Origin: Acidobacteriota bacterium
GTDB lineage: Bacteria > Acidobacteriota > UBA6911 > JACQSX01
Assembly: GCA_036507075.1 (NCBI GenBank)
Contig: DASXQR010000010.1
Coordinates: forward strand, 26,485-90,484
DNA length: 64,000 nucleotides
Direction of reading: 5' to 3'
The number at the start of each line of letters is the position of its first letter. The first letter of the stretch is position 1. Positions 1 to 53,049 of this stretch are shown piece by piece. The notes beneath the pieces were generated by a model. That model had not been told where the DNA came from. It saw only the letters and a list, made by a program, of their open reading frames with translations, and did not search any database. The position numbers and the translations under genes were made by a program.

Positions 1-130
1 GTTAACGAATAAACGATACTGAACGGAAACCAGCATCACAAACCGGCGGGCACCGGCGCTGGTTTTTGGGAACAGTTCCGTGCCACACACTGCAGAACCG
101 CGCGCGACAACAATCCTTAATTCGTTAGGC
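1..130 (-). repeat. attC-like recombination site (full length, ~130 bp) at the 3' end of the ParE/antitoxin cassette. Read on the minus strand it runs GCCTAACGAATTAAGG ... internal inverted repeats (AAACCAGCGCCGGT/ACCGGCGCTGGTTT) ... GTTAAC.
   Basis: RYYYAAC-type core (GCCTAAC) at one end and a GTTRRRY-like core at the other, with internal imperfect palindromes. The first 16 nt are identical to the truncated site at 3790-3812. It lies immediately downstream of a cassette ORF in the minus orientation. Confidence 0.5.
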
Positions 131-691: not shown

Positions 692-780
692 GCCTAACGC
701 TTGGCATCAGCCGCGCGCCCCATTCAATGTTGCGATCCAATGCACCGGCGGTGGCGCGTCGGCATGCCGTTGGTCAGGCC
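692..780 (-). repeat. attC-like site, long class. On the plus strand: GCCTAAC ... GGCATCAGCCGCGCG ... GCGGTGGCGCGTCGGCATGCC ... GTTGGTCAGGC.
   Basis: Shares the conserved L''/L' arms GGCATCAGCCGCGCG / GCGGTGGCGCGTCGGCATGCC with the sites at 1498-1590, 6403-6493 and 7165-7249. Has RYYYAAC/GTTRRRY-like ends. Confidence 0.6.
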
Positions 781-859
781 TTTTTTTCCACCAAGCGTCC
801 CGAGACATACTTGTGCAGAAGGCTAGCGACAATGCCGCTCCCTGGAAAGGAGATACTGT

Positions 860-1306
860 ATGACACCGTTACGGCAACGGATGATTGAGGATATGCAGTG
901 CATCGACAACGACCAGGTCACCTTTCGTTATCGCGATAATCGCTGCCAACAGATGCGCTCAGTCAAGCTGCCGGCTGTCGAGTTTATTGGCCGCTTCCTG
1001 CAGCATGTACTGCCGCGCGGTTGTGCCAAGGTGCGCTACTACGGAATCTGCAGTCCTTCCTGCCGCAAGCAACTGGATCAGGCGCGCACTCTGCTAACGG
1101 TACCCATCGACCACTCCCAGTCCACTCCCATCGCGCCCTCCCCCGAGCCACCCGGAACCGCTCCACCGCTGTCCCCATTGCCACATCGGACAGTTCATCA
1201 TCATCGAGATGATCCGTCCGCAACGTATCTACCCTCCATGACATCGCCATTGAACCCATGCGCTCTATCCTGTTGGGTCTGCCATCCTGGGCCGCCATGC
1301 GAGTGA
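860..1306 (+). pseudogene. IS91-family (Y2/HUH rolling-circle) transposase C-terminal remnant. Homology is confined to roughly 860-1090.
   Basis: ..[47 protein letters not shown].. resembles the conserved C-terminal region of IS91/IS801 transposases (..[21 protein letters not shown]..). There is no N-terminal HUH domain, and the gene is in opposite orientation to the cassettes. Confidence 0.55.
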
Positions 1307-1467
1307 AGTACTCGATAAATGCTTCTTTTCCGTCAGCCACTGCTGGGTTGTGTTGAATGTAGACGCGCCCGACGTACTTCTCGATCGCCTCTGCAGGCTT
1401 CGGACTGGTTAAATATCAAGTCATAGAAGGCTTGCACGGCCTTTTTGTTTTGATCGAGGCTCCGCAT
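984..1467 (-). pseudogene. SnoaL/NTF2-like (ester-cyclase-like) cassette gene, frameshifted and 3'-truncated by the IS91 remnant
   Basis: The N-terminal piece ..[16 protein letters not shown].. (ORF 1333..1521) continues in another frame as ..[45 protein letters not shown].. (ORF 984..1340). The frameshift lies near 1390, and homology ends near 1210 where the IS91 fragment begins. Confidence 0.4.
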
Positions 1468-1497
1468 TGAGATTCTCCCAGATCCAGAGGGTGGCTC

Positions 1498-1590
1498 GTT
1501 AGGCGGCCTAACGGCAGGCATCAGCCGCGCGTCAGGAACTGTAGCAATCCAAGGAAACCGCGGTGGCGCGTCGGCATGCCGGGGTTAGCC
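1498..1590 (-). repeat. attC-like site, long class (GTTAGGC GG GCCTAAC ... GGCATCAGCCGCGCG ... GCGGTGGCGCGTCGGCATGCC ... GGTTAGCC)
   Basis: Same conserved arms as the sites at 692-780, 6403-6493 and 7165-7249. Both GCCTAAC and GTTAGCC cores are present. Confidence 0.6.
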
Positions 1591-1602
1591 TGCGTCGCCG
1601 AT

Positions 1603-1914
1603 TTATTCTCCTTGCCGCCACTTTGCGAAGTCACGAGCTCCGTGCACGAAAGCTAAGATCCGCACTTCGGTAGATGTAACTTCATAGATTAGTCGATAGC
1701 GCTGGATAAAAAGTTCACGAGTGTCGGAATTTCCAATTTCGGGAACCACCCTACCGCGTTCGCTGAAAGACGCTAGAGTAGCCGCCGTTGCCAGAGTCTG
1801 ATCGAGAAACTGCTCGGCAGCGATGGGAGAGTTCTGGGAGATATAACTGAGTACTTCGTCAAGCGCCGAGCGTGCCTCTCTTGACCAGATTACTTGGCGC
1901 TGCCGACTATCCAT
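1603..1914 (-). CDS. Type II toxin, RelE/ParE family (ParE-like)
   Basis: ..RQVIWSREARSALDEVLSYISQNSPIAAEQF..ERGRVVPEIGNSDTRELFIQRYRLIYEVTSTEVRILAFVHGARD.. shows the canonical ParE fold signature. It is overlapped by the upstream small antitoxin ORF. Confidence 0.85.
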   Translation of the reverse strand: MDSRQRQVIWSREARSALDEVLSYISQNSPIAAEQFLDQTLATAATLASFSERGRVVPEIGNSDTRELFIQRYRLIYEVTSTEVRILAFVHGARDFAKWRQGE

Positions 1915-2126
1915 TTCTTGCGCAGCTCTTCGACTACCTGCTCGTGTGGGATCGTGCGGCCGGCAGCTACGTCCTCTTGGCCCCGGTTCACAGCTTGAAT
2001 TACATAGAGGTGGTACAAAACGTCGTCTATGCTGCAGTCGTCAGGGAGTCGGTCCAGCAGGGCCTTGACAGTCTGTTTCGTTCGCAAGTTGTCCTCCGGT
2101 TCGTTCAAGTCGTTGGAGCTTATCAA
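1890..2126 (-). CDS. Putative antitoxin partner of the ParE-like toxin
   Basis: 78-aa ORF directly upstream of and overlapping the toxin, which is the typical antitoxin-toxin operon arrangement. Family not identified by eye. Confidence 0.55.
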   Translation of the reverse strand: MISSNDLNEPEDNLRTKQTVKALLDRLPDDCSIDDVLYHLYVIQAVNRGQEDVAAGRTIPHEQVVEELRKKWIVGSAK

Positions 2127-2170
2127 AATTATGACCCCATTATAAGCACTCGACCATGATCGCCCAAGCA

Positions 2171-2230
2171 GGCTAACGATTCTGGGTTTGAGCCGCGCGT
2201 TCTTTACGTCGGTTCCAAACCCGTGTTAAC
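2171..2230 (-). repeat. attC-like site, short class (~60 bp): GCTAACGATTCTGGGTTTGAGCCGCGCGTTCTTTACGTCGGTTCCAAACCCGTGTTAAC
   Basis: RYYYAAC / GTTRRRY-type ends (GCTAAC ... GTTAAC) with an internal inverted repeat GGGTTTG...CAAACCC. It sits between two cassettes. Confidence 0.45.
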
Positions 2231-2265
2231 CCGTCCAAGTCCACATTTCTGACCAGTACTGCATC

Positions 2266-2619
2266 TCACCCGCTGAACTCCGAAGCAGAGAGATAGGCTT
2301 CAGCAGTTTGTGACGCATGACGACGCACTCGATCAACCACGTCCGCGAGGCCCATCATGCCGCCGAGAACAAGATAGATATGCTCGTGATCCAACAGGAG
2401 AAGCGGGGTTCTTTCACCTGACGCCTCTTGTCGAGCTACCGCAGAGTATCCGGATATCGAAACCATGACGCCCATAGTATTGTCTGCTTTGGTGGTGACC
2501 TTTTTGTGGAATGTGTCAATATCGGTGGCGGCCGCTTGTTTCGCCGTGAACATCCATTCGATCAAATAAGTAGTACCGGACACAGTGAGAGAACCATCTA
2601 TCTGCGTTCCATTATGCAC
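2266..2619 (-). CDS. Stand-alone Mrr-cat-like (PD-(D/E)xK) restriction-endonuclease domain protein, probable fragment
   Basis: ..IDGSLTVSGTTYLIEWMFTAKQ...GVMVSISGYSAVARQEA.. resembles the Mrr/restriction-endonuclease catalytic domain (D...E.K). Only 117 aa with no N-terminal recognition domain. Confidence 0.4.
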   Translation of the reverse strand: MHNGTQIDGSLTVSGTTYLIEWMFTAKQAAATDIDTFHKKVTTKADNTMGVMVSISGYSAVARQEASGERTPLLLLDHEHIYLVLGGMMGLADVVDRVRRHASQTAEAYLSASEFSG

Positions 2620-2717
2620 ATAGGGTTTTCTGTTCGAATTTCGGAGAAATCGAGCAGATTACATTGATTTCACAATCCCGAATTGTGACAGGCATCTATC
2701 ATCCTATCCCATGGACC

Positions 2718-3763
2718 TCATCTCCGCGTCGCTGCCACCACGTCCCGAATCGCAGTAACCACGATGTCAGGCTGCGAGATCAGAATCTCATGGCCGCTGT
2801 GCCGGGCGATGACCTGCTTGCCGGCGCTCGATAGAGCCACCAACGCCGCCTGGTTTCTCTTGTGCTCATCTTCACTCACGCGGCCCTCCGGACCTTCATT
2901 TTCGGGAATCCCTCGCGACAGCACGATAAGCGGCATGTCGCCCAAGGGATGTTCCTTCTTGCCTTGCTGGGCGAGCATGGCCGCCAGCTCTTCACCTTCG
3001 AACGGGTTGTCATTGGTTGCCCAGTGCTTGATTTGCGAGAACGCCCATGCGCGCATGCGCTGGGCTTCGGCTGGAAGCTTGTTGCGTGGCGTGTCGTTCG
3101 CGTGCGGAGCCATCTGCCGGACAGCCGCTTCAATCTGACTTCGGATGTTCCCGGTAAGGTCGCTTTCGCGCAGTGGATCCGAGGTCTTGACCGCCGGGAT
3201 GGGTCTTCCAGTTGCGGTCTCCACCAAGCGGACCATGCGGCTATCTCTGAAGACCGCCACACCACTTTCATGGCCACTCTCCTCGAGTACCATGCCACCG
3301 ACCTCCGATGGATATGTGAAAGCGTAGAGGCGAGCCAATATGCCACCGTACGAGTGCCCCACAAGCACATAAGGAGGCCGAACGCCAGTCTTCTCGAGGA
3401 CGGCATGCACTCCCACACGACCTGGCGCAACGTTCGTGGGCGTGGACCCAGGTCGCTCCAACCGAGCCCGGCGCGATCGTACGAACACACGCGCGCGAAG
3501 CGGGCGACTTCTGGCTGGACGAGACTCCAATCCACCGAGAAACCACCGGCCCCGGCTTCGAGGATGACAGTCGGCTGTGACGCGCTGACCTGGCCCGTGC
3601 AATTGAGGTGGACTCGCCACCCGCCGAGATCTACTAGCTGGCCGGGCGCAGAAATGGGTGGCGAACTGGGTGGTGTCTGGGCTGTCGCCGGCATCGAAAC
3701 CCAGATGAGCAGAACGGCTGATATCGGCACCAGCAATCGACACCAAGCGAGCGTTTGTTGCAT
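2718..3763 (-). pseudogene. Secreted alpha/beta hydrolase, frameshifted
   Basis: The signal peptide and N-terminus (MQQTLAWCRLLVPISAVLLIWVSMPATAQ..GWRVHLNCTG..VILEAGAGGFSVDWS..) are in the frame of ORF 2876..3763. The catalytic part (..PYVLVGHSYGGILARLYA..) is in the frame of ORF 2718..3746. The shift is near 3430. Confidence 0.65.
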
Positions 3764-3785
3764 CTCACTCCCCTCTATCGAAACG

Positions 3786-3812
3786 ATGTCGCGGCCTTAA
3801 TTCGTTAGGCGT
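3786..3812 (-). repeat. Truncated attC-like site (GCCTAACGAATTAAGG...). It shares its first 16 nt with the full site at 1-130 but lacks the distal half.
   Basis: Exact 16-20 nt identity with the 114-133 region. It directly abuts the start codon of the hydrolase pseudogene. Confidence 0.4.
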
Positions 3813-4044
3813 CTCCACCGAACAGCTCTACAAGGAGACGTTCAGCTTCTTGAAGACCCTGTTCGGTGAACACAACTGATTTTGCCTTGCCGACAGGGTC
3901 TGAGATATATCCCTTTTCGTGAAGGCGCCTCATTGCATCCCAATCAAAGCCTTTCCACGCTCGATTATCTTCATGCAGCCCAAGAACGAGCAGCGCTAGA
4001 ACTGCACGATCGATCTTGTCTGTATTGAGTTTCATTTCTTTCAA
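3805..4044 (-). CDS. DUF6429-family small protein
   Basis: ..DKIDRAVLALLVLGLHEDNRAWKGFDWDAMRRLHEKGYISDPVGKAKSVVFTEQGLQEAERL.. matches the conserved pattern of DUF6429 proteins. Single-gene cassette. Confidence 0.65.
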   Translation of the reverse strand: MKEMKLNTDKIDRAVLALLVLGLHEDNRAWKGFDWDAMRRLHEKGYISDPVGKAKSVVFTEQGLQEAERLLVELFGGDA

Positions 4045-4056
4045 TAAATGCCAGAT

Positions 4057-4120
4057 GCCTAACGCTCGCGGTCAGCCGCGGTGGGTGCGCTCGAGTGCGA
4101 CTTCGCTGCTATCCCCCCGT
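4057..4120 (-). repeat. Degenerate attC-like site (GCCTAACGCTCGCGGTCAGCCGCGGTGGGTGCGCTCGAG...)
   Basis: RYYYAAC core followed by imperfect palindromic arms related to the long class. No clear GTTRRRY end. Confidence 0.3.
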
Positions 4121-4507
4121 CCCACTGGCGGCTGCACCGCGTCCTTGGGCGGCAGCCAAGCCTTGCTGCGGAACCAATCGCCTATTGACCACATATTGCA
4201 AGTAGAAGATTCCAAAGAAGAACACCGCCATTACAGATAGGGGGGTCTGAGCCTGAATGCTCCTCAGCGGGCTCTGGGGATCCTGAATCCTCCTCAAATG
4301 GGACAAGTGAGACTCCAGAATACGGCTCACCTTGAAGCATTGTACGATCAAGGTGATCCCTGCAGTGAGTTGCAACAGTTTTGTTACAAGGTTGACGGAT
4401 TGAGAGGCGTCAACCTCGCCAGCGCCCTCAAGAGCGCCTAAAAGCCAGTAAAGAATAAGGTTAATGCTGAGTATAACTATCGCGAACACGAATGGCCCAA
4501 CTCCCAC
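4109..4507 (-). CDS. Hypothetical small membrane protein (2-3 predicted TM helices)
   Basis: ORF with hydrophobic N- and C-terminal segments. It is co-cassetted downstream of the zinc-ribbon protein, and its 3' end runs into the attC-like site. Confidence 0.4.
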   Translation of the reverse strand: MGVGPFVFAIVILSINLILYWLLGALEGAGEVDASQSVNLVTKLLQLTAGITLIVQCFKVSRILESHLSHLRRIQDPQSPLRSIQAQTPLSVMAVFFFGIFYLQYVVNRRLVPQQGLAAAQGRGAAASGTGG

Positions 4508-4567
4508 CTTCTCCTTCGCTTGGAGACTGTTGAATGCCCCACGTCGCGACAGGAACCAACAGGGATA

Positions 4568-4771
4568 CTAAATGCTGGCCGTGATGATGACGAGCAAAAT
4601 GGTCAACAGGATACTCTGTCTCCTTAGCGTCGGCGATTCCGTGTCAGTATTTGGGCCGGCGTGTGGTGCAAGTGGAGTGCTGTTATGAAGGGCTGTACCG
4701 CACTGCCCACAGTATTTCGTGCCGTCCTGGAGGCTGGCTCCGCAATGTGTGCAGTACATAGGTTCCTCCAA
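4568..4771 (-). CDS. Zinc-ribbon domain protein with C-terminal transmembrane anchor
   Basis: CTHCG..(x10)..CGQCG double CxxC zinc-ribbon at the N-terminus and a hydrophobic tail (ILLTILLVIITASI). Confidence 0.55.
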   Translation of the reverse strand: MEEPMYCTHCGASLQDGTKYCGQCGTALHNSTPLAPHAGPNTDTESPTLRRQSILLTILLVIITASI

Positions 4772-4835
4772 CGATAGATTTCAGGCGTCCGATCGGCATC
4801 AGCGGCGCGGTTTGCCGTCTGCTGCATGCGTCAGG
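4768..4835 (-). repeat. Short hairpin repeat (GGCATCAGCGGCGCGGTTTGCCGTC). Second copy of the attC-related short class also seen at 7690-7735.
   Basis: ~30 nt near-identical to 7699-7730. The palindromic core resembles the GGCATCAGCCGCGCG arm of the long attC class. Confidence 0.3.
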
Positions 4836-4869
4836 CAGCACCCGATCGTGTGGTCGGAGGGTAGTATAT

Positions 4870-5459
4870 CTCAACATTCTGACTGGCAATGTCGAGCGGC
4901 CCGAACAGGTTCTCAGCTACCGCTTTCGAAGTGTGAATGAGTTCGTCATAGGTGAGAATGCGCAGCCTTGGAATCTGACCCTGGAGCGTGACGGCTTCCA
5001 GCGATCATCGGCCGAAAGAGCCGCAGACCTGCCGATTACTATTAGTTAGCGATCTGGGATTGGCGGAGATGCCGGCCAGCCCGAGTTCTTGTTGCACGCT
5101 GGGAAGGTTGTCCTCAATGAAAATGCGCCAGTCGATAATCTGATTGATTGCGTGAGTCAATTCCTCCCGGCTAGAAGGTCGGTTTCGGCCCACAGTGGGG
5201 CGAATTCAAGCTTCCAGTAGTCGCTTTGGAATTTGGGGTACACTTCGAGGGCTTGCCAGCCAACCTGCAGCTTGATAGCGCCTTTCGCGAGAAACTCGCG
5301 AGTTCGGTCAATGTTCCCGGCGGGGTCTGCAGGCACGATGATTCCCGACATGACGAGTTGCAGCTCGTTAGTGCAAGACACCAAGCAGGGAGGCCGAATC
5401 GGAGGAGGTGGAATGGAAATGCTTGGATCAAAATCGAGACTGGCCATGATTACCAGCAT
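4870..5459 (-). pseudogene. Decayed cassette ORF of unknown function, split over three frames
   Basis: Consecutive minus-strand ORF pieces 5157..5459, 5005..5193 and ~4870..5000 each have plausible protein-like composition but are interrupted by frameshifts and stops. Confidence 0.25.
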
Positions 5460-5844
5460 AATTGTCCGCTACGACCTCGGCACCGAGGGCGCTACCAAGA
5501 TTCGAGCGGCGGCGATCGACTCCGGCTTGACAGAACTGGCTCCGAAGTTCTCGAGCCTCTACATACATCGCCGTTTTGCGTGCTCTAAGTTCTTGCGGCA
5601 GACGTTTCACGAACATGCAGAACAATCCATCAGCCAGTCCACTTGGGCACGAGCCTTCTATCAACTGCAAAAAGCAGAGGCAAGGGCTATCATGCAGCCG
5701 TTCGGGCGTTCGCTTTTAAATGGATCCGGATTATTTTTCACTGCTGGAAAGACAGCACCCTTTACAACGAGGAGCAGTACCTGCAGGCACTGCGTCGCAG
5801 AAACTCACCGCTGGTCCCGCTGCGGCAGGCGAGTGCTTAACTAA
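5440..5844 (+). pseudogene. IS110-family transposase C-terminal remnant, frameshifted
   Basis: The C-terminal ORF 5643..5840 (..KGYHAAVRAFAFKWIRIIFHCWKDSTLYNEEQYLQALRRRNSPL..) matches the conserved IS110-family transposase C-terminus. The upstream piece (..KIRAAAIDSGLTELAP..) is in another frame. No DEDD N-terminal domain. Confidence 0.55.
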
Positions 5845-5893
5845 AAAAACTATTGACTAAAACACCTCAGATGTCTGGATGCAATTGTTAGGC
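5834..5893 (-). repeat. attC-like site, short AT-rich class (GCTTAAC ... GTTAGGC)
   Basis: RYYYAAC and GTTRRRY cores spaced ~60 bp apart, at a cassette boundary. Confidence 0.35.
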
Positions 5894-6334
5894 GCGTCGT
5901 GAATATAGCATCCGGCCCCGTTCGCTGAACGTGAACCAGGTCAAATAGATCCCCAATAGCAAGCCACCAGGAAGATAGTAAACCTGTGCAGAACAAATAT
6001 AGAACAGGAGCGATGATTGCCATTCTAGATCGGCAATTGGGACTCGGCTGCTGTAAGTTTTAAGCTGCTTAAGTAGAGCAAGCGTCTGTAAGAATGGCAG
6101 CGCGATTCCAGCCCACCTAACCCAGCCCTTGCGGCGCAGCAAGCCGCTGCCAATGACCAGCATGGGAAGAGGCGATGTAAACGCAATGACAAAGATCAGT
6201 AGTAAGGGTGTCTCGCCGCTTGCACCCTGGGAGTTCACCAATACCACAAAGAAGAGAAATAACCCAGCCAACAGACTGTAAACAAGGTAGCACTTGGCCA
6301 GTAGATTGTTATGCCAAATAGTATTACGGTTCAT
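5888..6334 (-). CDS. Hypothetical integral membrane protein (~4 TM helices), low GC
   Basis: 148-aa ORF with hydrophobic helices. Its GC (~45%) is well below the window average, as expected for a cassette gene. Confidence 0.5.
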   Translation of the reverse strand: MNRNTIWHNNLLAKCYLVYSLLAGLFLFFVVLVNSQGASGETPLLLIFVIAFTSPLPMLVIGSGLLRRKGWVRWAGIALPFLQTLALLKQLKTYSSRVPIADLEWQSSLLFYICSAQVYYLPGGLLLGIYLTWFTFSERGRMLYSRRA

Positions 6335-6402
6335 TTCAACACCGCCTCTTTTCCAGATCTCAGGATTAACTACTGTGCGTCAGGATATTGGTTAACAGAA
6401 GC

Positions 6403-6493
6403 GTCTAACGCCGAGGCATCAGCCGCGCGCCAGGAAAATCTGTCAGTCCAAGGGAATCGCGGTGGCGCGTCGGCTGCATGCCCGTGGTTAGCT
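6403..6493 (-). repeat. attC-like site, long class (GTCTAAC ... GGCATCAGCCGCGCGCC ... GCGGTGGCGCGTCGGCTGCATGCC ... GTTAGCT). Read on the minus strand, R' = GTTAGAC.
   Basis: Conserved arms shared with 692-780, 1498-1590 and 7165-7249. On the cassette coding strand it is a canonical R''(xGCTAAC)...R'(GTTAGAC) arrangement downstream of the DUF2442 gene. Confidence 0.6.
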
Positions 6494-6513
6494 GGCGTCT
6501 CACTAGGCACGTC

Positions 6514-6810
6514 TCATGCCTGTACTAAATCCCATCTTCGAGCACGGGCGGTCAACGCTTCGACAAATTGCGGCCAGTCGTGTAACGTGGCTGGATCAAA
6601 GTCGGCGCCACTGGGCCAAACCAATGTGTGAACCTCAGGATCAATCCGAACCTGATTGAAGAGCGACAAGTCACGCAACGGTTTGTATAGCTCGCCTGCC
6701 AAAACCGGCTCCAAGTTGATCGTCTGCTCGGTATTGTCATCGAATTGGACACGCACCGTGTAGGGCGCCACGATTTCAAACGACTCGACACGATAGATTG
6801 GGTGAATCAT
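6514..6810 (-). CDS. DUF2442 domain protein
   Basis: ..YRVESFEIVAPYTVRVQFDDNTEQTINLEPVL..LRDLSLFNQVRIDPEVHTLVWPSGADFDPATLHDW.. is the typical DUF2442 pattern. Paired with DUF4160. Confidence 0.8.
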   Translation of the reverse strand: MIHPIYRVESFEIVAPYTVRVQFDDNTEQTINLEPVLAGELYKPLRDLSLFNQVRIDPEVHTLVWPSGADFDPATLHDWPQFVEALTARARRWDLVQA

Positions 6811-6820
6811 TGCTTATCCG

Positions 6821-7090
6821 TTATTTGAGCGGGTCGATCGGTAAGGGCTTCCGGCCCACTTGCAACCTTTGCCAATCGGTGACTAATTCCGATTGGTGTA
6901 ACTCCGCCCAAGCCTCAACTAAGCGTTGTTGCCGTTTGGGCAGTGAACCAGCGATCAACTCGATTGGATCAATGCTATAGATCCCCACACCCTCCTGATA
7001 GTACGCGTGAAAATGTGGTCTATGGTGTGGCGTCTCTGCCTCCGCATACATGCGAATAATGATACCGAAAAACCGGCTGATTTCTGGCAT
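6821..7090 (-). CDS. DUF4160 domain protein
   Basis: MPEISRFFGIIIRMYAEAETPHHRPHFHAYYQE.. is the canonical DUF4160 N-terminus. It lies immediately upstream of the DUF2442 gene, a known two-gene module. Confidence 0.8.
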   Translation of the reverse strand: MPEISRFFGIIIRMYAEAETPHHRPHFHAYYQEGVGIYSIDPIELIAGSLPKRQQRLVEAWAELHQSELVTDWQRLQVGRKPLPIDPLK

Positions 7091-7164
7091 GCACGCATCT
7101 TATTGTTCAATGAAACGGCGAGAAACGCACTGGAAATCAATTGCCCGCCCAGGGACCGTGAGCC

Positions 7165-7249
7165 AGCTAACGCTCAGGCCCGCGCGCCAGGAAATCTATC
7201 AATCCCAGGGAATCGCGGTGGCGCGGCGGCTGCATGCCGGGGGTTAGGC
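7165..7249 (-). repeat. attC-like site, long class (AGCTAAC ... GCGGTGGCGCGGCGGCTGCATGCC ... GTTAGGC)
   Basis: The conserved right arm and both core motifs are present. The left arm is degenerate (CTCAGGCCCGCGCGCC instead of GGCATCAGCCGCGCG). Confidence 0.6.
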
Positions 7250-7313
7250 GGTACAGCTGTCGAACAATCCCGGGCGTGATCAGCACGACATAAGAGCCAA
7301 TCCGCCGTTCTGG

Positions 7314-7613
7314 TTAGGGTGTGTTAGTCCTTTGAATCCGAGTCAATCTCATGGACTTTGAAAACTCCAACATATAAATGGGCTCTCCGGTCTTCAGATT
7401 GCTTGTTTCAACGCCAGCTGGGGAAAAGACGACGAAGAGACCGTCACTATCGGGCGTGCTACTGTAGGCATCGTGTGGAACTGTTTCCTGGAAACTCTTG
7501 AAAGTCATACCCAACTGCAATGTCCTCCCGACCCATCGCTGTACGCGCCGGCGATGCTTGTAGAGAACGTAGATGCCCCGCATCCCACGCGGAAGAGCGT
7601 TAACGTTCTCCAT
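7314..7613 (-). CDS. Hypothetical cassette protein with a weak GIY-YIG-like N-terminal motif
   Basis: 99-aa ORF. ..RGIYVLYKHRRRVQRWVGRT.. is reminiscent of the GIY..(x9-11)..YIG motif. No further confirmation is possible by eye. Confidence 0.3.
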   Translation of the reverse strand: MENVNALPRGMRGIYVLYKHRRRVQRWVGRTLQLGMTFKSFQETVPHDAYSSTPDSDGLFVVFSPAGVETSNLKTGEPIYMLEFSKSMRLTRIQRTNTP

Positions 7614-7689
7614 TGGAACGAATTCTTCACGGCGCTTGAGCCGAAGTGGACTTATGATCGCTTTGATTTTCTCAGCAACCTCTCAGAGC

Positions 7690-7735
7690 CGCCCAACGCC
7701 CGGCATCAGCGGCGGCGCGGTTTGCCGTCCGGGAT
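7690..7735 (-). repeat. Short hairpin repeat (GCCCAACGCCCGGCATCAGCGGCGGCGCGGTTTGCCGTCCGGG), attC-related short class
   Basis: RYYYAAC core plus a palindrome CCCGG...CCGGG. ~30 nt shared with 4775-4810. Confidence 0.3.
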
Positions 7736-7885
7736 TGAAGAGCTGCACAGATATCGGGCAAGCACACGGTGACGTGGAGAAGGCACCAGTACGCTTTGCC
7801 AGCACGACATCGGTTCATGTCTTCCCAGTAGATAGTAAAGGCGGAAGACAGCGTTCCTTTCTGCAACATCTAGTTCCTCAGCGCC

Positions 7886-8035
7886 GCCTAACTTTAAGTA
7901 AATGTCGCAAATTATAAGGCTATTACGCCGTGTAATCAACGTGGGACCCACAGTTCCAGTTGCAATCTATGAACGGATGCGGATAGATATACGGCGTGTG
8001 AAATTTTTTGGTGCCAGGCCTGGCGACGAAGTTTC
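7886..8035 (-). promoter_or_regulatory. Putative attI / integron promoter region. Core GTTAGGC (minus strand, 7892-7886) sits at the first cassette boundary, and the AT-rich segment contains candidate -35/-10 hexamers (TTGCAA ...18 nt... TAGATA) facing the intI remnant.
   Basis: Position between the intI remnant and the first attC-bounded cassette. The GTTRRRY core is oriented as expected for attI. Confidence 0.35.
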
Positions 8036-8038
8036 TCT

Positions 8039-8254
8039 GTGCCTGAACTGCTGGAGCAGGCGCGCGATTTGATCCGCGTCAAACATTACAGTGTCGGGAC
8101 CGATCAGGCGTACCTGCGATGGATCAGAGAATTCATAACGGTGCAGGAATTACTGGGGCACAAAGACGTCAGCACGACGATGATTTACACCCATGTTCTA
8201 AATAGAGGAGGGCATGGGGTTCGCAGTCCAATCGACTTAATTTCAAAGCTGTGA
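8039..8254 (+). pseudogene. intI: Integron integrase (IntI, tyrosine recombinase) remnant. An in-frame internal deletion leaves N-terminal ~33 aa fused to C-terminal ~38 aa.
   Basis: [30 protein letters not shown] aligns with the IntI1 N-terminus ([33 protein letters not shown]). [35 protein letters not shown] aligns with the IntI1 C-terminus ([35 protein letters not shown]). The RHR/box I-II region and the integron-specific insertion are missing. Confidence 0.85.
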
Positions 8255-8264
8255 TCCAAACATC

Positions 8265-9980
8265 ATGTCCGGGGAGATTTCAATGAAGAAGTATTACCGC
8301 CTGCTTGGCTTCCTGCTTGCATTTCCTGCCGTATTGGGCTTTCTTGGCGCGCCGGAGAAGAAGGTTTATCCCTATCGCTGGGTGCGCGTCAGCAGCGGGC
8401 TGAGAGACGATGCGGAAGTCGAGCGCGTCCGCAAGATTGTCCAGGCGGCCTCCGGGCACGGGCTGAACGGGATCGCGCTTTCGGCGGGCCTGGATCAGCT
8501 CGATATGAAGCAGCCCGAATATTTTCGACGACTGGAGCAAGTGCGGCAGATATGCGCCGAGGCCAAAGTCGACGTCATTCCGTCGTTCATGTCGGCCGGA
8601 TACGGCGGAGCCGTCCTGGCACACGACAAGAACCTGGCCGCCGGGCTTCCGGTGCGCGACGCGCTGTTCGTTGTTCATGAAGGCAAGGCCGATTTTGCCG
8701 CCGATCCGGCGGTGAATCTTGAAAACGGCGGTTTTGAAGGGACAAAAGAGGGGCTGCCCATGTCATGGCGTGTGGCCCAGCCCGGGACCGCCTCGATTGA
8801 TACGGCTGTTTTTCATGAAGGCAAATCCTCACTGCGATTCCACAATCTGGAAGATCCAAGACAGCCGGCGCGCGTCAGCCAGACGGCGCGGGTCCGCCCC
8901 CACCGCTGCTACCGGGTCAGCTTCTGGATCCGCACCGAAAGCCTCGGCGCGTCGGATCCTTTCGGCTCGGGCAACGTCCAGCTCGATGTGCTGGGAGGCG
9001 AGGAGAAACGCCCGCTTCAGTACGAAAATCCGCGTTTTCCCAACGACGATCAGTGGCACCGCGTCGCAGTCGGATTCAACAGTTGGGGATATGACAGGGC
9101 CGACATCTCGCCGAAAGTCCGGGGCAGCAAAGGCGGCACAGTCTGGATAGACGATTTGCGAGTCGAAGAAGCCGGCCTGGTTAATCTGCTGCGCCGCGCA
9201 GGGACTCCGCTCGTGGTCCGCGGCGAATCGAACAGCACCGTGTATGAAGAGGGGCGCGATTTTGCGCCGGTGTCTGACCAACGGCTGAATTTCCGATACG
9301 ACCATGACGGGCCATCCATTCAGATTCTCCCGGGCAGCCGCATCGTGGAAGGAGAGCGCCTGCGCGTCAGTTTTTTCCACGGAACAAACATTTACAACGG
9401 CCAGACTCCGGTATGCATGTCCGAGCCCAGGCTGTACGAAATCTGGCGCACCCAGGCGCGCCTGGTACATCAGGCGCTCGCGCCGGGAAAGTACCTTCTC
9501 AATATGGATGAGATCCGTACCGGAGGATCGTGCGAGGCGTGCAAAAAGCGAGGCGCGACGATGGGCCAGATCCTGGGCGACTGCCTCACAAAACAGGTCA
9601 ATCTGCTGCGGGAAGTGAATCCGAAAGCGGAGATTTTTGTCTGGTCGGACATGCTCGATCCCAATCACAACGCCAATCCAAACAAGAAGTACTATTACCT
9701 GGCGGAAGGGATTTTCACCGATTCATGGAAGCATGTCCCCAAAGACTTGAACATCGTCTGCTGGTATTACGAGAAACGGGCCGAGAGCCTGCGACATTTC
9801 TCGAACCTCGGCTTTCGCACCGTTGCGGGCGCGTATTACGACGCCGATAATCTCGACAACCCGCGCGGCTGGCTCGAATCGCTCGACGCGACTCCCGGAG
9901 CGGCGGGAATCATGTATACCACCTGGTTGAACAAATACGATCTGCTGCCCGGGTTTGGCGATCTTGTTTCGGGCCGCTGA
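8265..9980 (+). CDS. Secreted hypothetical protein with a central CBM4/9-like carbohydrate-binding module, possibly a glycoside-hydrolase-like protein
   Basis: Signal peptide (KKYYRLLGFLLAFPAVLG). The central ..NLENGGFEG...WIDDLRVEE.. block resembles CBM4_9. Coding-like codon usage over 571 aa. Confidence 0.55.
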   Translation: MSGEISMKKYYRLLGFLLAFPAVLGFLGAPEKKVYPYRWVRVSSGLRDDAEVERVRKIVQAASGHGLNGIALSAGLDQLDMKQPEYFRRLEQVRQICAEAKVDVIPSFMSAGYGGAVLAHDKNLAAGLPVRDALFVVHEGKADFAADPAVNLENGGFEGTKEGLPMSWRVAQPGTASIDTAVFHEGKSSLRFHNLEDPRQPARVSQTARVRPHRCYRVSFWIRTESLGASDPFGSGNVQLDVLGGEEKRPLQYENPRFPNDDQWHRVAVGFNSWGYDRADISPKVRGSKGGTVWIDDLRVEEAGLVNLLRRAGTPLVVRGESNSTVYEEGRDFAPVSDQRLNFRYDHDGPSIQILPGSRIVEGERLRVSFFHGTNIYNGQTPVCMSEPRLYEIWRTQARLVHQALAPGKYLLNMDEIRTGGSCEACKKRGATMGQILGDCLTKQVNLLREVNPKAEIFVWSDMLDPNHNANPNKKYYYLAEGIFTDSWKHVPKDLNIVCWYYEKRAESLRHFSNLGFRTVAGAYYDADNLDNPRGWLESLDATPGAAGIMYTTWLNKYDLLPGFGDLVSGR

Positions 9981-10313: not shown

Positions 10314-11600
10314 TTGGAGAATTTGATGACGCATCTAAAGCGGACTTTAGAACAGATTGACCCGCAAGTGGCCGAGGCCATTGCCAATGAAGCGCGCCGG
10401 CAACACACGCATCTGGAATTGATCGCCTCAGAGAATTTCGTCTCCGAGGCGGTGCTGCAGGCGATGGGCTCTGTGTTCACAAACAAGTACGCCGAAGGAT
10501 TGCCGGGTAAGCGTTATTACGGAGGATGCGAATTCACCGACATTGTCGAGTCGCTGGCGATCGAGCGCGCAAAGCGGCTCTTCGGCGCCGATCACGCCAA
10601 CGTTCAGGCGCATGCGGGAAGCCAGGCCAATATGGCGGTATATCTTGCGGCCCTGCAGCCGGGCGACAAGGTGCTGGGAATGAATTTGTCGCACGGCGGC
10701 CACCTCACTCACGGCCACCCCCTGAACTTCTCCGGAAAAATGTTCCAGATTGTTCCCTACGGCGTCAGCCGCGAGACCGAAACGATTGATTACGAAGCGC
10801 TGCAGCTTCTGGCCGAACGGGAAAAACCTAAGATGATCATCACCGGCGCCAGCGCTTACTCAAGGACCATCGATTTCAAAAGAGTGGGCGAGATCGCCCG
10901 CTCGGCAGGCGCCGTTCACATGTCCGATATCGCTCATATCGCGGGACTGGTAGCAACCGGCCTGCATCCCAGTCCGATACCGCACGCCGAGTTTGTCACC
11001 ACCACCACGCATAAGACGCTGCGCGGTCCCCGCGGAGGCCTGGTCCTGTGCCAGGCATCTCGCGCCAAGGAACTCGATAAAGTAGTATTTCCCGGAATTC
11101 AAGGCGGCCCGCTGGTTCACATTATTGCCGCCAAGGCGGTCTGCCTTCAGGAAGCTCTGCAGCCTGAGTTCAAGACCTATCAGCAGCAAGTGATGCGAAA
11201 CGCGGCTACCCTGGCCCGCGTCGTCGCTTCCCGGGGATTCCGGATTGTTTCCGGAGGCACGGACAATCACCTGCTGTTGGTGGATGTGTTCGCGCGTGGA
11301 ATCACGGGCAAACAGGCGGAAGAAACTTTGGAGCACGCCAATATTACGGTCAACAAGAACACCATTCCTTTTGAAACAAATTCGCCTTTTGTGGCCAGCG
11401 GGATTCGAATCGGATCACCGGCGCTCACGACCCGAGGAATGAAGGAAGCTGAGATGGAGCTGATCGGCGAGTGGATCGCCTATGTGCTGGAGGATATTCA
11501 GGACGAGGCGCGGCAGCGAAGGGTGAAGGAAAAAGTACTGCAGCTTACCGACCGTTTTCCGCTGTATCTCTCGCGCCAGCAGGTGGTCGGTAAGATATAG
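10314..11600 (+). CDS. glyA: Serine hydroxymethyltransferase
   Basis: ..[61 protein letters not shown].. are diagnostic SHMT motifs, including the PLP-binding lysine region. Confidence 0.97.
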
Positions 11601-13673: not shown

Positions 13674-14702
13674 ATGAATACATTATCCAGAAAGATCTCC
13701 TTTTTGGTGTCAGCGGCGCTGTTCCTGGCCATTTCGGTTCCGGCGTTCGGACAGGTTCGCGGCATCAAAGGGAAAGTAGTGGACGAAGAGGGTAAGCCGA
13801 TTGTCGGCGCCAAAGTGACGATCGAAGGCATCGATATCAAGCGCAATTACTCGACCAAGACGGACAAAAAGGGCGAGTACATTCACATGGGCCTGACCTT
13901 CGGGAAATACAGAGTGGGCATCGAGGCGGAGGGATTCCAACCCGACATGGTTTCCGGCATCACTCCGGCGGTGGGCGAGCCTACGGTCGCCGATTTTCAG
14001 TTAAAGAAGGGGAGCGGCAAACTCGCGCTCGGAATGACAGACGAGCAAAAGAAAAAAATGGCGGCCGAACAGGAAGAGGCCAAAAAGCAGGCCGCAGCGG
14101 CGGAAGCAGTAAAGACCGATTTCCAGGCCGGTATTGCCGCCTCCCAGGCGGGCAAGCTGGATGAAGCGGTTGATCTCTTCAAGAAGGCGATCGAGAAAGA
14201 TCCAAGCCAGCCTTATGTTTGGGCCAATCTGGCAGACACTTATGGAAAACAAAAGAAGTATCCCGAAGCCATCGAAGCCTTCAACAAGGCAATCAGTCTG
14301 AAGCCGGATGACTCTGCGCTGATCCAGAATCTTGGCAACATCTATGCCGCCAGCGGTGACACCGCGAAAGCTCAGGAGCAATACAACAAGGCGGCCAGCA
14401 TGGCTACCGCTTCGGCAGCCGCAGGAGGGAGCGGGAACGCGGCGGTCAGCTATTACAACCTGGGAGTCACCATGGTGAATGCCGGCAAGTCTCAGGAAGC
14501 AATCGACGCCTTTACCAAGTCGATCTCCGCCGATCCCACGTACGCCGAAGCTCACTACCAACTGGGCATCGCCTACATCAGTATCAGTAAGAACGATGAT
14601 GGCGTGAAAGCGCTCAAGGAATACATAAAGCTGGTATCCACCGGCCAGAATGCCGACACGGCCAAATTGCTGATTCAGGAACTGGGTAAAACGAAGAAGT
14701 AG
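13674..14702 (+). CDS. Secreted protein with N-terminal carboxypeptidase-regulatory-like (Ig-like) domain and C-terminal TPR repeats
   Basis: Signal peptide. GKVVDEEGKPIVGAKVTIEG is the CarboxypepD_reg-like motif. Multiple TPR-like AxxxFxKAIxxDP repeats follow. RBS GAGGG is upstream of the chosen ATG. Confidence 0.75.
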   Translation: MNTLSRKISFLVSAALFLAISVPAFGQVRGIKGKVVDEEGKPIVGAKVTIEGIDIKRNYSTKTDKKGEYIHMGLTFGKYRVGIEAEGFQPDMVSGITPAVGEPTVADFQLKKGSGKLALGMTDEQKKKMAAEQEEAKKQAAAAEAVKTDFQAGIAASQAGKLDEAVDLFKKAIEKDPSQPYVWANLADTYGKQKKYPEAIEAFNKAISLKPDDSALIQNLGNIYAASGDTAKAQEQYNKAASMATASAAAGGSGNAAVSYYNLGVTMVNAGKSQEAIDAFTKSISADPTYAEAHYQLGIAYISISKNDDGVKALKEYIKLVSTGQNADTAKLLIQELGKTKK

Positions 14703-14824
14703 CGGGTGATCCGTTGTCCGTGGTCAGTTGTCCGTGGCCAGAGGGTTTGAGTCAGTTGAGACTCGAAGGGTCAGCAGGGAATAGGTCCCGCGGTCAGGGT
14801 ACAAGGCATCATCATTCCTTCACC

Positions 14825-15541
14825 CTACTCCTTGCCAGCAGCGTCAAAGTAGTGCTCGGCCTTCTTGCATCCCAGGTCGGCCAGATTCGCCAGGGAGGCG
14901 ACCGCTGCGGATCGAACCTCGCTGTATTTGTCACGCGTCAGCTTGAGGAAGGACTCGAGCACGTCATCAGGGATCTGATTGGGCCGGTGCCAGTAAGCCA
15001 CAGACAGTTCGGTGACAGCATGGGCGCGCATCGCGGGATCATCGCAGAACAGGTATTCATTCAGAAATTCCACGGCCTCCTGGCCTCCCTGCTGCGCGAT
15101 TGACGCGGCAGCCGAGAGAATCATCTTTTGGCGCTTCTTAAGAAAGTTGTCGCGTTTGAAAGTGAAGTCCATCGCCTTACGCAGATAAGGGATGGCGCGA
15201 TCCTCTCCCACTTCACCCATGGCCACAATCAAGGCCGCCTGCAAAGACTGCGTCCCTGTCCCCGCGTGCGTTTTGTCTTCAAGCAGCGCCTGGAAGAGCG
15301 GGTCTAGAGTCTCTGTTCTTTCAAGGGTTCCAAGGGCGAGAGCGGCGAATTCCTTCTCTTTGCGCGAACCTTGTTTGAGTATTCTTAGTAAAGGCTGCAG
15401 AAACTTCCTGTTCCGGAGAACACTGATCTCAGGGAGGATATTGTATTTTTCGGCGGTAGTCCCAGTTTCGATAACTCCAACGCAGCGATCAACTGCATCA
15501 TCCTGCCTTTCATCGGGAGCAGCGGTTGTATCGAAACTCAT
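14825..15541 (-). CDS. HEAT-repeat (PBS-lyase-like) protein
   Basis: Repeated ..AVxALGxIGDxRAIPxL.. type HEAT units, e.g. RSAAVASLANLAD, RAHAVTELS, AALALGTL. Confidence 0.7.
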   Translation of the reverse strand: MSFDTTAAPDERQDDAVDRCVGVIETGTTAEKYNILPEISVLRNRKFLQPLLRILKQGSRKEKEFAALALGTLERTETLDPLFQALLEDKTHAGTGTQSLQAALIVAMGEVGEDRAIPYLRKAMDFTFKRDNFLKKRQKMILSAAASIAQQGGQEAVEFLNEYLFCDDPAMRAHAVTELSVAYWHRPNQIPDDVLESFLKLTRDKYSEVRSAAVASLANLADLGCKKAEHYFDAAGKE

Positions 15542-52839: not shown

Positions 52840-53049
52840 CGTATTCGAAGGGGAACGAAGCCGGACTATACCAGTGGAATTTCGAATTCAAAATTGAAAA
52901 ATTATCAAAGTTAAAGTTTCGTACTTTGGTGGTCAAAGAATTTGAAACCGGCTGAGAGCGATAGGGTAGGGAGAGCCGCTAGGCTCCCCCACCCCTTCGA
53001 ACCGGACGAGCGGATTTCCCGCATCCGACTCTCCAGTTGATAGGTCACC

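Follow-up and report, generated by a model that had tools for sequence, protein, structure and literature searches.

The first ~7,900 nt of a 64,000-nt stretch of the genome of an Acidobacteriota bacterium (contig DASXQR010000010.1 of assembly GCA_036507075.1, positions 26,485 to 90,484; hereafter the window) probably represent the integrase-proximal part of a sedentary chromosomal integron in decay, into which insertion sequences (ISs) have moved and in which deletions have left scars, one of them apparently welding two gene cassettes. An earlier note, made from the letters of this DNA alone, had described long and short attC recombination sites next to a truncated one, and had attributed the mixture to cassettes recruited from different donor pools and then decaying locally. 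The array and its decay are borne out by the remnant of the integrase gene intI and by attC sites that are mutated, truncated or missing. The donor pools are not: the size classes have their R and L arms in common and occur together elsewhere, and the foreign sequence is that of insertion sequences. In particular, we infer that the repeat shared by the truncated site and the first site of the window is the R'' box of an attC with its flank, joined to the 9-nt tip of an IS91-family element at its oriIS end, and not the end of an attC family.

The cassette array covers the window from position 1 to ~7,900. Its open reading frames (ORFs) with cassette-typical families lie on the minus strand between 125 and ~7,870 and encode two ParE toxin-antitoxin pairs, DUF6429, a DUF4160/DUF2442 pair, a zinc-ribbon protein, an alpha/beta hydrolase and several orphans. 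The attC sites have a single orientation: a covariance model built from eight copies of the long sites (model R1) and run over the 64-kb window gave eight matches, all confined to 692-7736 on the plus strand, each 3' of minus-strand ORFs. As the cassettes are on the minus strand and the extra bases of the folded sites are in the 3' arm of the plus strand, the latter is the bottom, folding strand of the sites. The proximal end of the array carries a candidate attI region (7886-7939, minus strand) with a core site GTTAGGC (7892 to 7886) and a Pc-like promoter, TTGATT-17-TATAAT (7939 to 7911), reading into the array; no integrase-binding repeats were identified around 7886-7939. The promoter, called by consensus match only, is close to the sigma-70 consensus, and the first cassettes may still be transcribed from this predicted element despite the dead intI.

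The intI remnant itself (8039-8254, plus strand) comprises 71 codons, with an in-frame deletion of ~250 codons: the first 33 residues resemble the N-terminal end of integron integrases, the last 38 their C-terminal end. Against the full-length IntI of L096 (contigs retrieved for comparison are designated by L and a number), residues 2-33 correspond to 61-92 and residues 34-66 to 343-375, residues ~93-342 being deleted; the match to TIGR02249 (E 5.8e-21, 75 bits) is below the cut-off of 265. An integron integrase with the IntI-specific additional domain and catalytic residues is no longer encoded by these 71 codons. Judged by its sequence, the integron is no longer able to recombine by itself and is eroding. 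Four more assemblies of the locus (L004-L007), 99.8-100% identical, were retrieved, and the DUF6429 product is 100% identical to a protein that NCBI names as coming from an Acidobacteriota metagenome-assembled genome (MAG). In L004, the array runs ~1.8 kb past window position 1 (L004 9477-11250) and is followed by chromosomal genes; this extension includes a long-type attC at 9565-9654 (35 bits), a degenerate one at 9814-9916 and an intact 58-nt one at 10422-10479, and a MazE/PemK pair (14695-15287) lies 3.5 kb beyond the end of the array.

Four long attC sites, read like the cassettes on the minus strand, align end to end, beyond the arms, and share a consensus fold that is a bulged stem with extra bases in the 3' arm of the plus strand. 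The best-folding copy, at 6403-6492 (98 bits, E 2.1e-20), reaches -24.9 kcal/mol with a z-score of -3.5; the others are at 1506-1590 (92.4 bits, E 4.1e-19), 692-778 (82.1 bits, E 1.1e-16) and 7165-7248 (75.2 bits, E 4.3e-15), the last with a 5-nt deletion in its L' arm. In 692-778, the R'' position (769-775, GTTGGTC on the plus strand) comes from the terIS end of an adjoining IS91 remnant described below. The long class announced by the earlier note is therefore retained for these four sites, homologous over their full length at 75-98 bits, and loses the member at 1-130, which has no match to the attC model and folds no better than shuffles (z -0.05). Its third member is real and starts at 1506, not 1498, positions 1498-1504 being a separate, isolated inverted core (GTTAGGC, plus strand) one base from the R' box of that attC; the resulting GTTAGGC-G-GCCTAAC (1498-1512) is a perfect inverted core pair at the R' end of the site.

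The remaining model matches, also on the minus strand, are weaker. A 94-nt site at 4057-4150 (32 bits, E 5e-5), missed by the note, has variant L arms, an R'' mutated to GCCCAAG and a long bulged stem (z -1.5), and a 61-nt site at 2171-2231 (23.2 bits, E 0.0056) folds with paired R boxes at -10.9 kcal/mol (z -1.9). The short site at 4784-4840 is degenerate (18.8 bits, E 0.058, z -0.9; GTT changed to GGA in R' and AAC to GAC in R''), and that of the first cassette, at 7691-7736, is truncated (16.8 bits, E 0.17, z +0.3), having kept the R' box GTTGGGC and lost the outer L''/R'' arm. Two very short hairpins that had been set apart for their different internal sequence (4775-4810 and 7699-7730) turned out to be the left halves of these last two sites, and thus to belong to the long-site family. 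R'' (RYYYAAC) and R' (GTTRRRY) boxes, an imperfect hairpin of 55-141 nt and extrahelical bottom-strand bases, the features that define an attC, are all found in the four long sites and in 2171-2231, and also in 4057-4150, though with its mutated R''.

As had been claimed, there are two size classes; they measure ~85-91 and 57-60 nt and form one family. The long form measures 84-91 nt, plus the 94-nt variant at 4057-4150, and the short form 57-60 nt; the latter is carried by L004 (10422-10479), L096, L114, L008, L032 and the window (4784-4840). Both display the common arms GGCATnCAGC...GCTGATGCC beside the R boxes, the short form differing by a shorter centre, and both occur together in arrays of other contigs. 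The intact 58-nt copy of L004 10422-10479 scores 41.9 bits and adopts a textbook attC fold (z -6.0), and 2171-2231 has ACGCGCGGCT in common with the long sites. On these alignments, the long and short forms are one host-type attC family, of which 2171-2231 is a distant member.

Could the repeats be coincidental, arising from low-complexity, GC-rich sequence, and the sites non-functional? The single-sequence folding z-scores of several sites are modest (-0.1 to -0.9), which speaks for such a reading, yet we assign it a negligible probability. The L-arm motif was found six times, five of them within the array, against 0.86 expected from shuffles, and a 16-mer present at 115-130 and 3795-3810 was found twice against 0.03 expected. 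An exact gapped pattern derived from the long sites retrieved three more copies, in Vicinamibacterales and Acidobacteriota MAG contigs, and the same families recur in unrelated contigs. Across 41 matches from the window and related loci, 95% of the stem cells are paired (a fraction somewhat inflated, the alignment having been fitted to the model), with changes on both sides in 15 of 16 pairs, against 31-53% paired when the stem partners were slid by 1-3 columns. The earlier note had itself named two outcomes that would refute it, a failure of the sites to fold as bulged hairpins and arms that are coincidental low-complexity sequence. The second objection falls, given eight matches restricted to 692-7736 on one strand and these 15 compensatory pairs; as to the first, most of the listed sites fold or match the model, and three (1-130, 3786-3812 and 5834-5893) do not.

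These last failures lead to the repeat. The 16-nt identity reported between 1-130 and 3786-3812 is genuine and is part of an exact repeat of 21 nt (115-135 and 3795-3815), which reads GAGAC GCCTAAC GAATTAAGG on the cassette strand. Its first 12 nt are an ORF end, as semi-conserved flank, and an R'' box (GAGACGCCTAAC), and its last 9 nt (GAATTAAGG) probably belong to an oriIS end, so that the shared end would not be that of an attC family. A GACGC-like flank precedes R'' at three other sites as well; on the cassette strand the GACGC motif stands just 5' of R'' at 124-137, 3804-3817, 5887-5900, 1584-1597 and 6487-6500, and at three of the five the TAA within GCCTAAC serves as the stop codon of the ORF.

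The origin of the 9 nt emerged from a metagenome scan with GCCTAACGAATTAAGG, which returned at least 120 contigs. About 85 of these continue with a conserved hairpin, GCCTAAC-GAATTAAGG-stem-loop-stem-GTTGRAC, 57-58 or 85-86 nt in length and with many compensatory changes in the stem. Among the matches listed, 27 of the 52 testable copies have an IS91-family Y2 transposase gene on the opposite strand, ~354 nt from the hairpin, and full-length Y2 transposase genes lie beside the hairpin in 27 contigs. The transposase gene is preceded by a tyrosine-recombinase gene starting MTPLRQRMIEDMQ, and the remaining copies include some resembling miniature inverted-repeat transposable elements (MITE-like), with both element ends fused (L061, L052). 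Near-identical elements are found in unrelated flanks, and divergence starts immediately before GCCTAAC; the 7-mer before GAATTAAGG varies (GCCGAAC, CTGCAAC, CGCTAAC), AAC alone being constant. Along the transposase strand, a unit comprises a terIS palindrome, the recombinase and transposase genes, an oriIS palindrome and CCTTAATTC, followed by the target GTTN, which is GTTA, GTTC or GTTG; there is no evident target duplication, although AAC is present at both junctions. IS91-family elements are known to follow such rules, with a tetranucleotide target beside oriIS, no target duplication and subterminal palindromes (PMC13181058), and the units have the hallmarks of that family: an HUH Y2 transposase and, downstream of it, an oriIS with a subterminal palindrome against a tetranucleotide target of the GTTC/CTTG type.

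Some candidates were set aside along the way. The conserved hairpin was considered as a guide or omega RNA, or as CRISPR-associated, until the adjoining genes were recognized as the IS91 transposase and the recombinase, and an inverted position of the unit relative to the array was dropped when the attC model showed the hairpin to be oriented with the top strand in 14 of 15 arrays. At the contig end of L110 (1-146), the oriIS target box is directly preceded by a CRISPR-repeat-like sequence, GTCAAAATGCCCCTATGAAGGGGATTGAAAC. Viral contigs scanned for the hairpin without the 7-mer gave chance matches in coding sequence only.

In the window itself, two IS91-family remnants border cassettes. The first (1-123, plus strand) is a much-deleted copy, reduced to the 3' arm and terminus of the oriIS palindrome (98-123, CGCGCGACAACAATCCTTAATTC) and a piece of the transposase at 39-57, where 19 of 19 nt are identical to the transposase gene of L024 (codons for CKPAGTG). 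A covariance model of the oriIS hairpin (model R2) matches the window from 130 to 80 at 30.8 bits over the 5' arm only; the site agrees with the model in its first 23 to ~33 nt, and the stem partner is absent. Beside this end stands the R'' box GCCTAAC of the ParE cassette (124-130, minus strand), which includes the ParE stop codon and whose complement supplies GTTA, the target tetranucleotide. Past this R'', the next recognizable attC body is outside the window (L004 9565-9654), and similarity to terIS in that direction (L004 9545-9572) is weak only, so that no terIS is claimed there. The second remnant (769-1241, plus strand, antisense to the cassettes) starts with the terIS end, the 5' untranslated region and the first 13 codons of the recombinase gene (860-897), fused to a frameshifted C-terminal part of the Y2 transposase (902-1241; Y2_Tnp PF04986, E 5e-16; IS91 transposase NF033538, E 2.5e-19; a fragment only). 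Nucleotide matches to full IS91 copies span 827-897 and 902-1195. This remnant separates the attC at 692-778 from a truncated SnoaL-like gene. A third, degenerate hairpin arm was considered at 2671-2695 and rejected, as model R2 gave it no support.

A competing explanation sees in 1-130 and 3786-3812 a second, foreign attC family (the 'AATTAAGG' family) brought from another donor pool, the second copy having lost its distal part. It has real attractions, several of which weigh against our own account. The oriIS hairpin is itself attC-like, with RYYYAAC and GTTRRRY boxes in the R'' and R' positions, a covarying stem and a length of either 57 or 86 nt; no transposase lies near about half of its testable copies; and perfect, symmetric palindromes of this type stand alone inside arrays (L109 and L032). 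Both window copies, moreover, begin exactly at the stop codon of a cassette ORF, and the deletion that this explanation invokes is supported. We nevertheless consider it unlikely. The hairpin is tied to an IS91 transposase at fixed distance and orientation in 27 copies, and IS ends are fused in the MITE-like ones; what stays constant beside it is the sequence on its R' side, and the ORFs upstream change from copy to copy, whereas an attC would travel the other way round. At 1-130 there is no stem partner and no fold, and there are transposase codons, while the same array holds a second IS91 remnant in the same relative orientation.

How such elements came to lie in arrays is a separate matter. 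The body of a host-family attC comes directly after the terIS end in L114, L060, L032 and the window (769-775); in L114, a normal attC is obtained when both flanks are joined. In two other contigs, L110 and L020, attI or intI lies beside the terIS end. Relative to the attC sites, the orientation of the element is the same in 14 of 15 arrays, including the window. The proposal that the IS91-family units, with their Y2 transposase, tyrosine recombinase and MITE-like derivatives, form an undescribed class of integron-homing elements is a tentative one, which we rate as somewhat more likely to fail than to hold. Under it, the oriIS end would be placed against the GTT of core sites, that is, of the bottom-strand R'' of an attC or of the attI core (L110, L020). 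Full-text literature searches found no description of IS91-family elements homing to integron core sites.

The same units could instead be gene cassettes moved by IntI rather than by their transposase, their ends GTTGAAC and GTTCAAC being the split R' and R'' of their own attC. These ends are indeed exact complements and covary between subfamilies (GTTGAAC/GTTCAAC versus GTTGGAC/GTCCAAC), the L110 and L020 units adjoin attI or intI, and the far end runs into homologous attC bodies in L114 and L060. Against this, the flanks past GTTCAAC are unrelated and not attC-like in most copies, it is the hairpin at the opposite end that is conserved together with the unit, in 14 of 15 arrays the genes run antisense to the cassettes, and the architecture fits the IS91 rules (PMC13181058). 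This makes a cassette origin very improbable, well below that of a foreign attC family.

Further points tell against the IS91 account as we present it. The scan pattern contained GCCTAAC, so that both the target preference and the enrichment in integron contexts are biased by design. No pair of empty and occupied sites was found, and the exact boundary of the element is thus deduced. The order of IS invasion, intI loss and later deletions is likewise a reconstruction and not an observation, and the calls of SnoaL and SduA pseudogenes are weak (E ~0.006).

With the IS91 reading of the repeat in place, the scar at 3795-3810 (minus strand) can be described in detail. Its components are the R'' box GCCTAAC from the DUF6429 cassette and GAATTAAGG, and the 5' end of the hydrolase cassette is attached to them within a TTA(A)GG / TTAGG microhomology; the segment 3775-3812 has an R'' box as its only attC feature (z +0.1). 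In three homologues of the hydrolase found elsewhere (L129, L130 and L131; 82-91% protein identity), a core box stands immediately upstream, with the sequence GTTAGGC in L129 and L131 and, as a variant, GCTAGGC in L130; it is followed by CGCnnnATCGTTTCGATAGAGG..ATG, and in L129 a complete long-class attC is visible ahead of the box. In the window, the junction is GCCTAACGAATTAAGG joined directly to CCGCGACATCGTTTCGATAGAGG..ATG: the hydrolase cassette is complete from about position 4-7 of the R' core, and nothing is left of what lay between the core and the first 9 nt of the IS end. Because the homologues have a core box, and L129 a whole attC, where the window has the scar, a deletion that fused the DUF6429 and hydrolase cassettes is supported, in agreement with what the earlier note had proposed. 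The homologue of DUF6429 in L008 (89% nucleotide identity) was examined as a representative of the undeleted state and discarded, having a different short attC and an unrelated downstream gene.

The hydrolase gene (2718-3763, minus strand) is frameshifted, as had been noticed, and appears as two overlapping ORFs (2876-3763 and 2718-3746); the cause is a single A missing after 3408. L006 and L007, two of the four other assemblies, have this A and an intact allele of 348 aa, whereas all four have an identical junction at 3795-3810, hence the frameshift is independent of the deletion. Judged by this comparison, the lesion is not old, being either polymorphic in the population or a recent mutation. 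On the other side of the gene, L129 and L130 have an attC of ~70 nt after the hydrolase and the window has none at that place; the ORF at 2266-2619 (minus strand, 117 aa, no family match), which is not separated from the hydrolase by any attC, was probably also welded to it in a second cassette fusion. The 98-nt spacer between the hydrolase stop and this ORF (2620-2718) contains two small hairpins (z -2.0) and no R boxes.

A different insertion sequence would account for the site at 5834-5893. Of the two short, AT-richer sites that had been reported, 2171-2231 stands as a hairpin with R boxes and 5834-5893 is lost: an RYYYAAC-like box and a GTTAGGC mark its two ends, with no stem between them and no fold (-1.3 kcal/mol, z +1.0), and the stop codon of a transposase pseudogene overlaps the left 'box'. 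That pseudogene (5440-5840, plus strand, antisense to the cassettes) is the frameshifted C-terminal remnant of an IS110-family transposase, matching NF033542 (E 2.2e-5) and annotated IS110-family transposases (52-56% identity over 86 aa, E 8e-27). The R'' box GCCTAAC at 5887-5893 (minus strand) includes the stop codon of the ORF at 5888-6334, and the remainder of the attC is missing; only 46 nt follow the transposase stop. The attC after this ORF would thus have been interrupted just past R'' by the IS110-family element. Members of the IS1111 group of the IS110 family are known to insert at one end of attC sites (PMC11187229, PMC11089894).

The history that we consider most likely would run as follows. 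A working integron held a single attC family. IS91-family elements entered its array with their oriIS end against GTTN, the GTTN coinciding with the conserved GTT of the bottom-strand R'', and would have split three attC sites, namely 692-778, the one after the ParE cassette and the one after the DUF6429 cassette; an IS110-family element likewise may have split the attC after the ORF at 5888-6334. The integrase gene was lost through its internal deletion. Further deletions, along with point mutations, would have erased the bulk of each element and also attC bodies nearby and portions of genes. The 21-nt repeat would then be the common residue of two such scars. At 3795-3810, the deletion would have reached the R' core of the same attC across the TTA(A)GG / TTAGG microhomology, leaving a DUF6429-hydrolase unit that IntI could no longer separate.

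The other cassette genes, all on the minus strand, are ordinary for such arrays. The toxin-antitoxin cassette at 125-678 encodes ParE (125-424; PF05016, E 1.7e-9) and an Unstab_antitox protein (421-678; PF09720, E 1.7e-16), and a second one, at 1603-2126, another ParE (1603-1914; PF05016, E 2.7e-18) with an upstream small ORF (1890-2126). Between them, the frameshifted SnoaL/NTF2-like pseudogene at 1245-1468, whose 3' end is cut by the IS91 remnant, matches SnoaL_2 weakly (E 0.007). The DUF6429 gene spans 3805-4044 (E 2.8e-32), and DUF4160 and DUF2442 form a two-gene cassette at 6514-7090. Many cassettes here and in relatives begin with GTTAGGCCGC, which suggests an extended R' consensus.

A scan for attC sites based on boxes and an ungapped stem yielded almost nothing useful, and covariance models were used instead. 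Taxon-specific attC models, including one for Acidobacteria, have been published (Ghaly et al. 2021, PMC8352920). Rfam contains no attC family, and the only matches that it gave were to group II intron domains. The single intron-like match in the window (52961-53033, minus strand; domain V/VI, 42.5 bits for a gathering score of 40) is 45 kb from the array, between a lactate permease gene and a BNR-like ORF, with no reverse-transcriptase ORF in the vicinity. This match may represent an orphan fragment or a borderline false positive.

Taken as a whole, the array is an ordinary and well-documented object, a chromosomal integron with taxon-typical attC sites that would now be in decay. It offers a worked example of erosion after integrase loss, with IS entry at the R'' end and deletions that then take away attC bodies and weld cassettes, and the availability of several assemblies of one population separates fixed from recent lesions. 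On the practical side, automated attC finders and human readers alike may take an IS91-type oriIS palindrome for an attC. If the homing of the IS91-type units were true, they would be a third kind of attC-targeting element beside IS1111-attC elements and group IIC-attC introns, a rolling-circle transposon family parasitizing integrons; they would provide a mechanism for cassette fusion and could be a major cause of such fusions and of array decay in soil bacteria.

Among known systems, the closest are the sedentary chromosomal integrons, such as the Vibrio arrays with their VCRs and those of Xanthomonas. The window shares with them an array whose small cassettes, among them toxin-antitoxin pairs and DUFs, all point the same way, and attC sites with full-length homology that are common to related genomes. 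At one end of the array there is likewise a divergent intI, here with a candidate attI and a Pc-like promoter. It differs from them by its intI of 71 codons, by attC sites that are mutated, truncated or missing, and by two length forms side by side.

Degenerate integrons with an inactivated intI, and clusters of attC sites without an integrase (CALINs), are also known, in which integrase loss is followed by erosion of the array. CALINs were reportedly treated by Cury et al. in 2016. As in these systems, integrase function is lost in the window and the array is eroding. Unlike CALINs, the window keeps an intI remnant and a candidate attI, its stages of decay are readable, and the four other assemblies separate fixed from polymorphic lesions.

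The mobile elements also have counterparts. The IS1111-attC group (Tetu & Holmes 2008 and Post & Hall 2009, as cited in PMC11187229 and PMC11089894) consists of IS110-family ISs found at one end of attC sites in a fixed, antisense orientation, which resembles what is seen here, in particular the IS110-family remnant against the R'' box at 5887-5893. The window departs from that group in that the repeat first noticed as 16 nt would derive from IS91-family elements (HUH Y2) and not from elements with DEDD transposases, and in that its IS110 remnant, with only 46 nt after the stop, is without the long downstream non-coding region expected of IS1111 elements, which are also characterized by subterminal inverted repeats.

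IS91, IS801, IS1294 and ISCR elements (PMC13181058) have in common with the units described here a Y2 transposase, a downstream oriIS with a subterminal palindrome against GTTN, a short terIS palindrome, no evident target duplication and frequent internally deleted copies. The present units are set apart by an extra tyrosine-recombinase gene upstream of the transposase, by an oriIS palindrome with the layout of an attC, and by a target tetranucleotide that is the GTT of the integron core site in the contigs retrieved, a retrieval biased in that direction. Finally, group IIC-attC introns are mobile elements that home to folded attC sites in one orientation (PMC3001079); they are retroelements of unrelated sequence, and the IS91-type units would share with them homing to attC sites in a single orientation.

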